Positions 43 through 5,282 of a DNA stretch of 5,282 nt are shown here, piece after piece. The DNA is from a virus. Its lineage: Duplodnaviria; Heunggongvirae; Uroviricota; Caudoviricetes. A program made the position numbers and the translations under genes. The notes under the pieces were generated by a model, which saw only the letters and a list, made by a program, of their open reading frames with translations, searched no databases and was not told the origin of the DNA. Where the stretch lies: IMG/VR virus record IMGVR_UViG_2654587792_000026, positions 1 to 5,282 of that record; one strand, given 5' to 3'. Numbering within the stretch: position 1 is the first letter of the stretch; each line of letters opens with the position of its first letter.

Positions 43-120
43 TCAATAAGTTGGAGTCATTACCAACTCATACTGCTCCGGTGTTTTAGCATTACCAGCT
101 TTTATGTTCTTTAAGTGCAT
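43..120 (-). pseudogene. Start of a tail-fibre assembly (Tfa/U-type) gene, apparently truncated after ~25 codons
   Basis: ATG at 120-118 lies 4 nt downstream of the fibre cassette stop (127-125). Manual translation gives MHLKNIKAGNAKTPEQYELVMTPTY followed by TGA at 45-43. From memory, an MHLKNI...EQY start is the conserved N-terminus of Mu U / e14 TfaE-type assembly proteins, which are far longer than 25 aa. A shifted frame is open from ~67 to the window start, so a frameshift or continuation off-window cannot be excluded. Confidence 0.35.
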
Positions 121-124
121 CACA

Positions 125-1312
125 TTAAACGCTCGCTACATTATACCAGGTGCCATTTATATACTTTTGAACAGGTCTGTAATAAACGCCAGCTATATTA
201 TCGGCAGAGTTGGACCCTGTATCCTGAACATTAATACCAGACAATACATGACCTGACGGGCACTGGAAATTCCATGTTTGCCAGTTGTTCACACCATGAT
301 ATTGCTGTGAACCAAGACGAACATCTTTCACATAGCGGGAATCAAAATTCCCCCAGTTGCTGGGTTGTATCTGACCGTTAACAGCAAATATCACCGAGTT
401 ATCTGTATTTCGCTGACTATAGAAATGCCAGCCTGAATCATCACCAAGCTCTGCAACAGTTGGTCTTGACGAATTTCCCCACAAGCTAAATGATGCATTA
501 CGGGCAGCGGTATTTGCACTTGAAAGTGTGAAGAACTTACTTTCCCCAGCCTGAATACCCTTTAATGATCTTGCTGAACCATTTATAAAGCGGAATACAT
601 GCACACCATTAGCATAAGCATCCAGCACCCCATCACCATTTTGTTTAAACCCGGTATCGTTATCTCCTAAAACAATCGAGTTACCGCCAAGAGCACTGGA
701 TGTTCCGATGCCCAGTGCACCATTCAATTGACCGCCAGATAATGACAACGCCCCAACCTCAGCAGCAGTCGGTTTAATGTGCGAACTGTAAATTACATAT
801 ACAGTTCCATCTGTCAGACCTGTTGGTTTATTCGCTGTATAAGATGGTGATGTATGAATCGTTACGCTGGCGTTACTGGTATAATCCCACTGAATATTAA
901 CACCTGTGGCGTAATTACCTATTTCAACATAAACATCATAGGTATCACCGGATGTATTCACCCATGCAAAATTAGTAAATCCAACCGATGTCCGTCGCCA
1001 TAATGCACCAGTAATGCCTTTTGGATTCCCATTTCCTGCACGCAGAACCAGCTCAGAGATGCCTGCTTGATGCGAGGAGCCAACGTTATACCCTGCGCCA
1101 CCAATCAGGCTTATGTAAACCACGGAACTGGCTTGTGGCATTGTTACAGTTGCCAGTTTGAACCATCCAGCACCACCACTAAAAGACATGGTTGTTGAAT
1201 TTGTTGTGCCGATATTACGCAGGAATAGTTTTTTATCGGGAATATCTGCGCCGTTCTGGTTTTTCTGTAATGCACCAGAAGCCTGATTTACCGTTTCCTG
1301 TAAACCGAGGTT
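125..1312 (-). CDS. Tail-fibre variable C-terminal cassette, promoterless and in the silent orientation of an invertible segment
   Basis: The ORF track gives 125..1189, but the same frame stays open upstream to a TAA at 1315-1313 inside the crossover site, adding NLGLQETVNQASGALQKNQNGADIPDKKLFLRNIGTTNSTT before the first Met. The product is Gly/Ser/Asn/Thr-rich with a ...NWGNFDSRYV... motif near the C-terminus, typical of fibre distal receptor-binding domains. It is divergent from the invertase gene and starts within the recombination site, as Sv' does in the Mu G segment. The ATG at 1189 is therefore probably internal. Confidence 0.75.
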   Translation of the reverse strand, partial: NLGLQETVNQASGALQKNQNGADIPDKKLFLRNIGTTNSTTMSFSGGAGWFKLATVTMPQASSVVYISLIGGAGYNVGSSHQAGISELVLRAGNGNPKGITGALWRRTSVGFTNFAWVNTSGDTYDVYVEIGNYATGVNIQWDYTSNASVTIHTSPSYTANKPTGLTDGTVYVIYSSHIKPTAAEVGALSLSGGQLNGALGIGTSSALGGNSIVLGDNDTGFKQNGDGVLDAYANGVHVFRFINGSARSLKGIQAGESKFFTLSSANTAARNASFSLWGNSSRPTVAELGDDSGWHFYSQRNTDNSVIFAVNGQIQPSNWGNFDSRYVKDVRLGSQQYHGVNNWQTWNFQCPSGHVLSGINVQDTGSNSADNIAGVYYRPVQKYINGTWYNVASV

Positions 1313-1320
1313 TTAGATAA
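1295..1320. other. 26-bp gix/pix/cix-type crossover site for the DNA invertase
   Basis: TTCCTGTAAACC-GA-GGTTTTAGATAA: two 12-bp imperfect inverted half-sites around a central GA. It matches my recollection of Mu gixL (TTCCTGTAAACCGAGGTTTTGGATAA) at 25 of 26 positions and lies ~55 bp upstream of the invertase start. The inner half encodes the LGLQE junction peptide of the fibre cassette. Confidence 0.8.
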
Positions 1321-1374
1321 TGGCGGTTTCTGGCCTGCATGGCATGATTTGTGCTTTTGGACGGGAGATTCAGC

Positions 1375-1965
1375 GTGCTGATTGGCTATGTAAGGGTATC
1401 AACAAATGACCAGAATACAGACCTGCAACGAAACGCTCTTGTTTGTGCAGGATGTGAACAAATATTTGAAGATAAATTAAGCGGGACAAAGACTGACCGA
1501 CCGGGATTAAAACGCGCTTTAAAGCGCCTTCAACAAGGTGACACGCTGGTTGTCTGGAAACTGGATCGCCTCGGGCGAAGCATGAAACATCTGATTTCTC
1601 TCGTCGGGGAACTACGGGAGCGAGGGATTAATTTTCGTAGTCTGACCGACAGCATAGATACATCTTCTCCAATGGGGCGTTTTTTCTTCCACGTGATGGG
1701 TGCCCTGGCTGAAATGGAACGTGAATTAATTGTTGAACGTACACTGGCCGGACTGGCGGCAGCGCGCGCACGGGGGCGCACAGGCGGACGTCGACCGAAG
1801 CTGACAAAAGAACAGCATGAGCAAATAGCAAGGCTGATTAAAAACGGTCACGACAGAAAACAACTGGCAATAATTTACAGCATTGGTATATCGACAATTT
1901 ATCGTTACCACCCCGCAGGAGAATCAAGTGGAACAATTGAGAAGAGTAAACAAAATAACCGCTAA
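1375..1965 (+). CDS. Site-specific DNA invertase, serine recombinase of the Gin/Pin/Cin/Hin family
   Basis: Translation from GTG 1375 gives MLIGYVRVSTNDQNTDLQRNAL..., the canonical family N-terminus with the catalytic Ser at codon 9 (1399-1401). Conserved blocks GDTLVVWKLDRLGRS, SLTDSIDTSSPMGRFFFHVMGALAEMERELIVERT and a C-terminal HTH region (GRRPKLTKEQ...IIYSIGISTIYRY) are present. GGGAG at 1363-1367 is a plausible RBS 7 nt upstream of GTG 1375. The ORF-track start at 1351 (also GTG) would add 8 non-conserved residues and is less likely. Confidence 0.9.
   Translation: MLIGYVRVSTNDQNTDLQRNALVCAGCEQIFEDKLSGTKTDRPGLKRALKRLQQGDTLVVWKLDRLGRSMKHLISLVGELRERGINFRSLTDSIDTSSPMGRFFFHVMGALAEMERELIVERTLAGLAAARARGRTGGRRPKLTKEQHEQIARLIKNGHDRKQLAIIYSIGISTIYRYHPAGESSGTIEKSKQNNR
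1465..1530. promoter_or_regulatory. Candidate Fis-dependent recombinational enhancer inside the 5' part of the invertase gene
   Basis: In Hin/Gin/Cin systems the enhancer lies within the first ~100-170 bp of the invertase coding sequence. This interval holds an AT-rich G...C 15-mer (GAAGATAAATTAAGC, 1468-1482) and a perfect 14-bp palindrome (GCGCTTTAAAGCGC, 1514-1527) whose centres are ~46 bp apart. This is an inference from position and sequence form only. Confidence 0.3.
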
Positions 1966-1990
1966 TCTGGCCATTAGCGGTTTTTGTGTT
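1957..1990. terminator. Bidirectional rho-independent terminator between the convergent invertase and gpU genes
   Basis: Perfect 10-bp stem AACCGCTAAT (1957-1966) / ATTAGCGGTT (1973-1982) with a 6-nt loop CTGGCC. It is followed on the plus strand by TTTGTGTT and on the minus strand by ATTTTGTTT. It overlaps the invertase stop (1963-1965) and lies 11 nt downstream of the gpU stop (1996-1994). Confidence 0.6.
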
Positions 1991-1993
1991 AAA

Positions 1994-2488
1994 TCAGAAC
2001 AGCCCTTTAACGGAGCTGGCCGCGCTGTTAAGGGATGATGTGACCTTATCTTTGAAGCCGGACAGCATATCGCTGAACGATGAGGATTGCAGGCGCTCCC
2101 GCAAATCCTCATCACAGCGTTCAAGGGTCAGTGAAAACTCTATCTTTTTCGCCTTGCCGTAGCGATCAAACTCGGAACGGGTCGTATTCGTTTCAGTCAG
2201 TACATACATGCCGTAAATCTGCCCGACACCATCAATCAGAGGCCAGGGGCGTCCTGTATATGCCTGCGTGGTCAGCAACGAAAGCGACACTTCGCCACCT
2301 GTAATTTCAGGATAAAGCACGCCGGAAAGCACGATGCGATCATCACCTGCGCCGATATACTGCCAGCTTGCTGAACGGTTAACGCGTTCATTTTTCACAT
2401 GCCGCCAGCTTTTGTTTTGCTGTAACTGCTGATGCGGCAACGTGCGCAGCTCAAAAACAAACATGCCATAGATCATCATCATGGCCAT
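1994..2488 (-). CDS. P2 gpU-family phage tail protein
   Basis: The 164-aa product carries blocks recalled from the P2 gpU family: FVFELRT, SWRHV, IVLSGVLYPEITGG, GRPWPLIDGVGQIYGMYV and KKIEFSLTLER. It sits immediately 3' of the tape-measure gene with a 6-nt gap, the T-U order of P2-type operons. GAGGAG (revcomp of 2491-2496) overlaps the tape-measure stop; spacing suggests the true start may be the third Met (2482) rather than 2488. Confidence 0.85.
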   Translation of the reverse strand: MAMMMIYGMFVFELRTLPHQQLQQNKSWRHVKNERVNRSASWQYIGAGDDRIVLSGVLYPEITGGEVSLSLLTTQAYTGRPWPLIDGVGQIYGMYVLTETNTTRSEFDRYGKAKKIEFSLTLERCDEDLRERLQSSSFSDMLSGFKDKVTSSLNSAASSVKGLF

Positions 2489-2494
2489 GACTCC

Positions 2495-5282
2495 TCAATC
2501 TTTATCGTAAAAACTGCCACGCCCGGCACGGGCGCGCCGTTCCATTTCTGCCCTGACCATTTCGCCAACCAGTTTCGCCAGTTCGCGGGGATTCTGTGTA
2601 ACAACGTTATGCAGATGAACATGAATTTCACCGCCAAATCCGGAGGCAACAGGCTCCCGGTTACGGGAAGTTGCAGGAACTGATGCCACTGGCGATCGTA
2701 TAGCCTCCGCCACCGGGCGGGAGCTGGCCGCAACAACAGGGACCAGCGCCGGAGGCAGCGGAGCCGGAACCACGGGTGTGATAGTAATTGCGGGGGCAGG
2801 CTTACTGACCTGCGCAATCTTCCGCTCCTGCCACTCCCCACGAACAGCAAGTGCGCGGGGCAGGTTCTTAAAGACAATATCGCCGGGGCCAATGCGTTTT
2901 TTCGTCTCATCAACCAGCTTACCTGTGTTATCAGCAATTTTGCTGAGTCTGCGTAGCGTACCGGTATTGTTGTCTGTGAGCGGTTTGTTGTCTCTGGGTT
3001 TATCGCCTTTTTTGTCGTCGACCTTATCTGACGGGGCCGGGCCGGGAGTCCATGGTTTCTGAACCATTTTCTTGAGAACCGGATCCCATTCCCACATTAC
3101 AGGAGCCTTTGAAGCGTTCTCTATTTTCTTTCTCGCCCGTTCCGCTTCATCCGGAAGCACTCCGAGCTTTTCAAGTATCCACGCCAGTGAATCCATCAAT
3201 GCTTTTGTTGGCGTCAGGACAAGCTCTATCGCTCCACCGAGTACCCTGCCGAATACCTCGCCAGCACTGGTACATTTATCCAGCGTTTCCTTGCTGGACT
3301 CCATCGGTGACAGCAGCGATTTAAACCAGTTAAAGACCTGAATAATCCCATCGCGCACGACATCAAAAACTGGACCGAACCGTTCAAAGGTTTCGCGCAA
3401 CGGAGCCAGCCGTTCCATAATCCCACTGAACACCCCTGCATAAAACGCCTTGATGGGTTCCCAGTATTTCCAGATGAGAACCGCCGCAGCCACAAACGCA
3501 GCAGCAATCAATCCGACCGGGCTGAACAGCGCCCCGATAGCGCCCCCCAGTAACGAAACGGAACCCGTCACCATTCCCCATAGTGCTGGCAGGAGCCTGA
3601 CAGCATTCATTGATCCGGTCAGGAGGGAAAAGCCAAGACGCAGTTTTGCCAGCGGGCCAGCAAGCACACCAATAGCCAACGACAACGAGCCGACCGTTGC
3701 AGTCATCGCCAGCAATGCCCCACCTGCAATCAGTAGCTGGCGCGTCAGTGCCGGATGGGCCTGCGCCAGCGCCGTCACCTTTGATACCACCCGCGTGAGC
3801 CACTGCGTGACAGAACGCAGCGGACCGTCAATCAGATCTGCAATGCGGATGCGCAACCCTTCCCATGCACTGCCGAGTGATTTCAGATCGCCGTCAAGGT
3901 TGTTGGCCATAACCTTTGCCGTGCGTTCAGCCTCACCGCGTGCGCCTTCAAGTTCTTTTCTCAGTTTAGGTAAGGATCCGTCACCTGCCGCATCAACGAG
4001 GGCCATAAATGATGTGAAAGCCTCTTCTCCGGCAATGTCCTTAAAGAACGATACCCGATCAACTTCTCCGTATTTGCGGGTGGCTTTATAAAGGTCAGTC
4101 AGCAGATCTTCCATCGGGCGCATTTTGCCCCCGGCATCCGAGACAGACACGCCCAGCTCTTTCAGCGCCTCTGCTGCCGCCTTTGGCGGTGATGCCAGAC
4201 GAGCCAGGCTGGCACGCATTGCCGTCCCGGCATCACTTCCCCTGATACCCATATTCGCCAGCACGCCCGCCATCGCTGCGGCCTGCTCCAGCGATATTCC
4301 CAGCTTACCCGCCACCGGACCTGCATATTTCATGGTTTCGCCCAGTGCGCGAAGGTCAGTGTTGGTACGGGTAAACGCTGCAGTGAGTGTGTCACCGACC
4401 CGGTCCATCTGGTCAGCAGAAAGGCCGAACTGCGTCAGGATATTTGAGCCAATATCCGCCGTCTCGCCGAGATCCATACCGCCAGCCGTTGCCATGCTCA
4501 ACACGCCGGGAAGCGCAGCCTGAATGGCCTGCGGTGTGAAGCCAGCCATTGCAAGAAATGCCTGCCCACTGGCGGCATCGCCTGCGGTGAACTGCGTTTC
4601 AGAGCCAAGTTTTAACGCCTGCTCACGCAGCGCCTTAAACTGCGGGCTGTTCTGGTCGATTCGCGTCAGCGCCTGAACGCGGGACATCTCTTTCCCGAAC
4701 CCGATCGCAGGCTGCAAAAAACGCCCGGCAGCATAGCCGCCCGCCGCTGCCGCACCTGTTGCCAGTGCACCACCTGTTTTCAGTTTTCCCGCGGTTTCCT
4801 GCGCGCGCGAATACCGCTCACGCGCCCGCGTTACACGCGCAAGCGCCTGCCGTTCGCGTTCAAGCTGGTTGTTGTACTGTTCGGTGCGTCTGATGGCCTG
4901 TTGAATGGTGTTATCGCTGCCTGTCAGGGAAATGCCGTGGCGTTTCAGCTCTCCGCCAAGCTCCCGCATTTTCTGAATCTCCCGTGTGCGCGATTCATTC
5001 AGGCGTTCAAGCCGGGTGCTTAACTGCTGCATCAGCTTTTGTTGTTTTTCGCTGAGCACTGTACCCGTGTGTTGTAACTGATTAAGGGCGTTAAGCTGGC
5101 GTCGCGCTTTCAATATGCCAGCATCCGCTTTACTGACAGCGTCACGGGCGCGCTCAAATGAACGCGCCTGACGCTCGAGATTTTTGATCGCCCCCTGCGT
5201 TCGCTGGATGGAGTCACCAAACTGCCCCATCAGGCGGCGGGCGTTTTCGGCAGGCCGGGTCAGCCTGTCAACGGCGCTGAAA
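2495..5282 (-). CDS. Phage tail tape-measure protein (length-determining), 5' end outside the window
   Basis: More than 911 codons; the frame remains open from the ATG at 5230 to the window edge at 5282, so the N-terminus is probably off-window. It has a charged Gln/Arg/Glu-rich helical N-terminal region, an Ala/Gly-rich tract, a core with ...YAGPVAGKLGISLEQAAAMAGVLANMGIRGSDAGTAMRASLARL..., a ~100-residue hydrophobic stretch (~3461-3754) and a Pro-rich C-terminal region (~2642-2800). All are typical of tape-measure proteins. Confidence 0.85.
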   Translation of the reverse strand, partial: FSAVDRLTRPAENARRLMGQFGDSIQRTQGAIKNLERQARSFERARDAVSKADAGILKARRQLNALNQLQHTGTVLSEKQQKLMQQLSTRLERLNESRTREIQKMRELGGELKRHGISLTGSDNTIQQAIRRTEQYNNQLERERQALARVTRARERYSRAQETAGKLKTGGALATGAAAAGGYAAGRFLQPAIGFGKEMSRVQALTRIDQNSPQFKALREQALKLGSETQFTAGDAASGQAFLAMAGFTPQAIQAALPGVLSMATAGGMDLGETADIGSNILTQFGLSADQMDRVGDTLTAAFTRTNTDLRALGETMKYAGPVAGKLGISLEQAAAMAGVLANMGIRGSDAGTAMRASLARLASPPKAAAEALKELGVSVSDAGGKMRPMEDLLTDLYKATRKYGEVDRVSFFKDIAGEEAFTSFMALVDAAGDGSLPKLRKELEGARGEAERTAKVMANNLDGDLKSLGSAWEGLRIRIADLIDGPLRSVTQWLTRVVSKVTALAQAHPALTRQLLIAGGALLAMTATVGSLSLAIGVLAGPLAKLRLGFSLLTGSMNAVRLLPALWGMVTGSVSLLGGAIGALFSPVGLIAAAFVAAAVLIWKYWEPIKAFYAGVFSGIMERLAPLRETFERFGPVFDVVRDGIIQVFNWFKSLLSPMESSKETLDKCTSAGEVFGRVLGGAIELVLTPTKALMDSLAWILEKLGVLPDEAERARKKIENASKAPVMWEWDPVLKKMVQKPWTPGPAPSDKVDDKKGDKPRDNKPLTDNNTGTLRRLSKIADNTGKLVDETKKRIGPGDIVFKNLPRALAVRGEWQERKIAQVSKPAPAITITPVVPAPLPPALVPVVAASSRPVAEAIRSPVASVPATSRNREPVASGFGGEIHVHLHNVVTQNPRELAKLVGEMVRAEMERRARAGRGSFYDKD

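Follow-up and report, generated by a model that had tools for sequence, protein, structure and literature searches.

Introduction

The late genes of phage P2, which has no invertase, lie in the order H, G, fun(Z), FI, FII, E, E', T, U, D, ogr. FI to U form the tail operon, which is read from a late promoter of the Ogr type, and U and D overlap by one base within one operon. Both of these last products are needed in the P2 virion, where the hub is formed by three copies of gpD and the tube initiator by six copies of gpU atop the hub (bioRxiv 10.64898/2026.09.14.750843). Salmonella phage Fels-2 (Felsduovirus) possesses H, G, G', H', an invertase, FI, FII, E, E', T, U, D, and ogr; its FI-to-ogr genes are colinear, with D directly after U, and its invertase and invertible cassette are situated between the fibre genes and FI. 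In the G segment of phage Mu, the S'v fibre cassette is followed by a gix site and then by the invertase gene gin, reading outward. Escherichia phage P88 (Xuanwuvirus, Peduoviridae) is an induced, plaque-forming phage with a contractile tail visible by electron microscopy and a fibre that sets its host range (PMC5285337), and its relative phiSM of Citrobacter rodentium is likewise an active phage (PMC6456863). Here we analyze a 5,282-bp stretch of viral DNA (IMG/VR record IMGVR_UViG_2654587792_000026; hereafter, the window), which is in its entirety one complete draft contig, JHTM01000208.1, of assembly GCA_001506145.1, and in which P2-family tail genes T and U abut a Mu-type fibre switch with no hub gene, D, between them.

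Results

Comparisons with public sequences showed that the top phage matches of the window are P88 and other members of Xuanwuvirus. P88 is 94.9% identical in nucleotide sequence over positions 1239-5282 (75% of the window), unbroken across the junction between the invertase gene and gpU; this likeness was judged on the 5.3 kb only and is colinear through invertase, U, and T. The order of fibre cassette, gix site, invertase, hairpin, gpU, and gpT is shared with P88 and its Xuanwuvirus relatives, including Citrobacter phage phiSM, gpU is 99% identical to that of P88, and the U end of the tail block stands in the P88 configuration. In E. coli NCCP 15734 the junction is 100% identical to that of the window. 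The window differs from P88 in that its fibre-tip cassette is another allele, nearest to those of Mu-like phages, in that its second chaperone gene is cut by the insertion sequence IS1, and in a divergent patch of T at residues ~721-770. These results indicate, with a probability of about 0.88, that the window is a fragment of a P88-type, P2-family prophage with a gene order normal for its lineage.

The junction itself was as reported in a preliminary description of this DNA, with a convergent invertase gene and a terminator hairpin 11 nt past the gpU stop. The hairpin (positions 1957-1982), a two-way intrinsic terminator, has a 10-bp stem with T-rich tails on both strands and overlaps the invertase stop codon (1963-1965). 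Its minimum free energy was -15.7 and -16.1 kcal/mol in the two directions, with z-scores of -4.0 and -3.75 against shuffled sequences, and P88 carries the same hairpin. To survey the junction we used a 231-bp probe that runs from the 3' end of the invertase gene through the hairpin into that of gpU, counting matches with at least 80% of the probe covered. Of 5,426 complete E. coli genomes, 626 (11.5%) contained it. The same joint is found in the cultured or induced phages P88, 520873, 503458, phiSM, and P884B11.

This distribution bears on the suggestion, made in the preliminary description, that the locus is a mosaic, formed when an invertible fibre locus of the Mu type became linked to P2-type tail genes. 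In nucleotide sequence, the invertase and gix region is 92% identical to that of Mu, and SfMu and Mu-like Yersinia phages have S' regions that match the fibre cassette at 92-93%. The switch is therefore an exchangeable module, and many loci with the same tail layout lack it. As an old and common exchange, the mosaic holds. A recent joint, formed anew in this copy, is very unlikely, since the same joint occurs in the five phages named above and in more than a tenth of complete E. coli genomes, and invertases also follow gpU in Morganella and Xenorhabdus loci.

No hub gene was found in the window. Minus-strand open reading frames between 1320 and 1994 encode at most 83 amino acids, none being of hub size, as had been described, and tblastn searches of the window with the D proteins of P88-type phages and of P2 detected no D gene or remnant, the best match having an E value of 0.03 over 19 aa. 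This absence describes 5.3 kb bounded by assembly breaks, not the element as a whole. In P88, the genes V, W, J, I, H, and G are followed by G' and H'v on the opposite strand, the invertase, then U, T, E', E, FII, and FI on the opposite strand, and finally D in forward orientation, after which an ogr-like gene was located by tblastn. In every related E. coli prophage examined, D is divergent from FI and lies ~5.2 kb from gpU, and the block FI-FII-E-E'-T-U is inverted, as it is in P88, relative to P2 and Fels-2. All eight of the loci with a gpU identical to that of the window encode a PF05954 protein divergent from FI, which is 369 aa long (413 aa as called in locus L009). E. coli TUM14668 has the P88 gene order, and the Prokaryotic Genome Annotation Pipeline (PGAP) names its sheath-adjacent gene "phage late control D family tail protein"; NCCP 15734 shows the same order, D included. 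The D protein of the P88 type can be aligned with P2 D from end to end, at 49% identity. Among the explanations offered in the preliminary description, a hub encoded elsewhere is thus the one that the relatives bear out, and we infer that this particular genome still has D.

Two further observations concern D and its surroundings. In NCCP 15734 (locus L094, 18114-18967), the annotation of D consists of a shortened protein of 266 aa and a partial pseudogene, and the endolysin gene carries a frameshift. All E. coli relatives examined (L003, 3010-3150; L002 and L004-L010) have a gene of the hok/gef toxin family just past ogr, where the prophage ends.

An alternative is that this copy is a defective prophage that lost D, and perhaps more, by deletion, so that the junction between U and the invertase is a deletion scar. 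The IS1 insertion in the fibre cassette, a contig too short to show D, and the truncated D annotation of one relative would all be compatible with such a loss. Against it, the junction and hairpin are laid out as in plaque-forming P88 and in the 626 E. coli genomes, no remnant of D is found at the junction, and T and U are intact. Since the junction is shared so widely, the absence of D after U is expected and is not evidence of loss; being intact and typical of the lineage, the junction lends no support to a deletion derivative, which we regard as improbable.

To place the two arrangements of D among the Enterobacterales, we scanned one genome per species with the gpU profile. The 80 loci obtained were sorted into classes using D, FI, invertase, Tfa, and Ogr proteins as tblastn queries. 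In 37 loci, D lay on the opposite strand immediately upstream of FI, and gpU was 52-98% identical to that of the window. These loci came from Salmonella, Serratia, Enterobacter, Kosakonia, Pantoea, Mixta, Symbiopectobacterium, Edwardsiella, Providencia, Morganella, Photorhabdus, Xenorhabdus, Pectobacterium, Citrobacter, Hafnia, and other genera. U was followed by D and ogr, as in P2, in 36 loci plus one borderline case, with gpU 42-50% identical to that of the window; the remaining six were too short or too rearranged to be classed. The order T-U-D, taken as general for P2-type tail operons in the preliminary description, is therefore wrong for about half of the loci surveyed. What that description had named as grounds for abandoning its view, an intact D in a conserved and widely shared arrangement, is in substance what the relatives display, with D adjoining FI rather than U. 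The D-divergent and colinear classes formed a clean bipartition in separate neighbor-joining trees of D, FI, and U, built without bootstrap from a sample picked by gpU similarity.

One locus, L014 (NZ_JBQPOM010000071.1, a 226-kb contig titled Vagococcus sp. WN89Y), has the same prophage layout, and its gpU shows 98% identity to that of the E. coli type; the label denotes a Gram-positive organism, and the contig is probably a contamination or a mislabelled assembly.

What follows gpU varied within the D-divergent class. Most loci have a convergent fibre-assembly or fibre gene directly after gpU; the E. coli P88 type, one Morganella locus, and two Xenorhabdus loci were alone in having an invertase at this place. 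This variable occupancy indicates that the switch is an optional module at the convergence point of the operons. In one E. coli locus (L005, 10592-11770), a glycosyltransferase-like gene stands where the invertase would be, and two others (L004, 11831-12535; L008, 13216-13920) bear insertion sequences at the convergence point, with neighbouring phage genes lost.

The invertase gene of the window (1375-1965, plus strand) encodes a 196-aa serine DNA invertase of the Gin/Pin family. Both the resolvase catalytic domain (PF00239, E = 2e-50) and the C-terminal helix-turn-helix (PF02796, E = 4e-13) were found, and the motif YVRVSTNDQ is conserved, YVRVS being the catalytic-serine motif. With the protein from the Mu record as query, it proved 85% identical to Mu Gin. 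Its start is likely the GTG at 1375, which the public record also calls; a start at 1351 was set aside in favor of this codon.

Upstream of it, at 1295-1320, lies a gix-type crossover site, TTCCTGTAAACCGAGGTTTTAGATAA, which forms the right boundary of the invertible segment. It shares 25 of 26 positions with Mu gixR and has the same sequence as the P88 site. The crossover dinucleotide falls at ~1307-1308, and the annotated boundary of the Mu G segment maps to ~1308. A frame on the minus strand is open from 1312, just within the gix site, to a stop at 125-127. We consider this region (125-1312) an alternative C-terminal fibre cassette in the non-expressed orientation, equivalent to Mu S'v; it had no Pfam match, and the layout is that of Mu's silent fibre-tip cassette. 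In Mu the neighbouring genes differ: its tail genes are its own and not of the P2 family, and gin is followed by com/mom, where the window has a convergent tail operon.

The second tail-fibre assembly gene, equivalent to Mu U' and P2 G', begins at 123 on the minus strand and retains ~19.7 codons (65-123), being interrupted by IS1 in its twentieth codon. A tblastn search with the Tfa protein matched residues 1-21 to 123..61 (86%), at which point the match stopped, and the matching 175-aa gene is intact in E. coli TUM14668. Positions 1-64 are an IS1 end, 100% identical to the ends of annotated IS1A and IS1B, and also the contig edge; this 64-bp end occurs at 71,293 places in E. coli genomes, and the matches of the relatives to the window begin at base 65. 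The contig breaks off within IS1, past which may lie either the remainder of the invertible segment or a rearrangement. With its chaperone gene cut, the silent orientation is probably non-functional.

Direct evidence that the gix-flanked segment inverts in nature came from two relatives, other than the source strain. The same prophage occupies one and the same chromosomal site in L003 (CP021689) and in L006 (CP028483), and the identity of the flanks is 99.98% and 100%. Between them, a 2.4-kb segment (11344-13785) is 38% identical when compared directly and 100% identical as the reverse complement. It is enclosed (11174-13955) by inverted-repeat arms of 170 nt that are 89% complementary (65 nt in P88), the outer ends of which are the gix sites. 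The left gix site of this pair is imperfect, reading GGTATT versus GGTTTT. Inversion of the fibre segment has also been measured by sequencing in P2-like prophages of enteropathogenic E. coli (PMC4272514).

The tail genes are of the P2 family, as had been proposed. The gene for gpU, the tail-tube initiator and last gene of the FI-U operon (1994-2488, minus strand; PF06995, E = 5.5e-39), lies directly downstream of the tape measure gene, a feature of P2-family tail modules; its product is 46% identical to P2 gpU, and an identical protein was found in 645 blocks of the public collection. The tape measure gene, gpT (2495-5282, minus strand; PF10145, E = 4e-58), is represented by 928 codons free of stops, with its first ~9 codons falling beyond the contig end. 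The 935-aa T of an E. coli prophage matches it at 88% identity over 928 aa, and an exact-protein look-up found the window's T in no public record as a complete gene. Residues ~721-770 (window ~2972-3121) are strongly divergent from the E. coli relative, with flanks ~90-100% identical, which suggests a recombination patch. At 5282 the contig breaks off ~9 codons from the start of this gene. The window shows no repeat, and a second P2-family prophage with the same E'/T junction sequence may account for the break. A scan of the window against Rfam gave no matches, and a sigma-70 promoter scan of 1100-2600 gave no sites.

Discussion

The arrangement found here is already known: it is the ordinary architecture of a common phage lineage, a named genus with sequenced, plaque-forming members. 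Several points weigh against assigning the window to a P88-type prophage of normal gene order. The closest E. coli matches are 94-97.5% identical and none spans the IS1 junction; the limits of the window, at the start of T on one side and at IS1 on the other, exclude D and FI as well as the left gix site and the constant fibre part; and the IS1 insertion in the cassette amounts to some decay. The shortened D annotation of NCCP 15734 further shows that damaged copies exist, and some copies of the P88-type prophage are indeed decaying.

We also considered whether the window belongs to an R-type tailocin with inversion-switched specificity, like carotovoricin Er. The D-divergent layout does occur in Pectobacterium, Xenorhabdus, Photorhabdus, Pantoea, and Kosakonia, genera with described P2-derived tailocins. 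The close E. coli relatives (P88, TUM14668, and NCCP 15734), however, are all complete prophages with capsid, terminase, portal, replication, and integrase genes, and P88 makes plaques, so that a tailocin is the least probable of the explanations considered. A contractile particle toggled by inversion, as had been envisaged, remains apt in the form of the known phage P88.

For the P88-type prophage, the organization suggests the following course of expression. The baseplate and fibre operon (V, W, J, I, H, G) and the FI-to-U tail operon converge, and both would end at the shared two-way hairpin. At this convergence point sits the Mu-like switch, consisting of the Gin-type invertase, the gix sites, and two cassettes of fibre tip and chaperone. 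By flipping the gix-flanked segment, the invertase would fuse one of two C-terminal tips to the constant part of the fibre, and such an exchange of tips would change host range. In the present copy, a flip to the orientation cut by IS1 would probably yield fibres that fail to assemble.

The P88 type differs from Fels-2 only in that the FI-to-U block is flipped in place, so that U abuts the invertase and FI abuts D. In the P88-type lineage, D and U accordingly belong to separate, oppositely oriented transcription units. A search for inverted repeats or gix-like sites at the ends of the FI-U block, which might have explained the flip, gave 106 short, imperfect pairs, none of which stood out, and a second AAACCNNGGTTT core was not found outside the fibre switch. 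The FI-U operon would be read from a P2-like late promoter, and D, with ogr after it, would have stayed behind, sharing with FI a short control region from which the two genes are read in opposite directions; we infer this route for D transcription from the layout. In the D-FI intergenic region (positions 4753-4909 in L003, compared with the same region in 25 other loci), the D-divergent class has one TGT-N12-ACA dyad, present in the E. coli type in a version with one mismatch (TGT-N12-AGA), and a GC-rich block, CGCGCGCG, is conserved between the dyad and D. The center of the dyad lies ~74-88 nt upstream of the FI start, and that of the annotated activator site of the P2 promoter PF ~82 nt from the FI start. 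When promoters were sought from the dyad together with -10-like motifs, the FI side fitted the geometry of P2 PF; start codons of D differ between genera, and the D-side promoter was not placed by this means.

The clean bipartition of the D, FI, and U trees fits one ancient inversion. We offer as a tentative proposal, which we would put well short of even odds, that the separation of U from D marks a single, ancient, in-place inversion of FI-U that defines a large branch of the Enterobacterales Peduoviridae, including loci from genera with P2-derived tailocins, and that the one Ogr-type dyad in the shared region may serve as an activator site for the D and FI promoters alike.

The D-divergent class runs against the general statement that, in the Peduoviridae, the tape measure gene lies upstream of both the tube initiator and the hub (bioRxiv 10.64898/2026.09.14.750843). 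An explicit description of the inverted tail block, or of the two-class split in the placement of D, was not found in the searchable literature, and the papers on P88 (PMC5285337) and phiSM (PMC6456863) do not discuss the inverted block. The two-class split across the Enterobacterales is thus one mildly new point.

As a discovery the element carries little weight, since its genus is a named one whose sequenced members include plaque-forming phages. For annotators and for those searching for tailocins, the lesson is that T and U without D are no defect, as about half of the surveyed gpU loci hold D beyond the sheath gene. P88-type prophages are common, occurring in ~11% of complete E. coli genomes, and their Mu-type fibre switch flips in natural E. 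coli populations, which is relevant to predicting the host range of these prophages.

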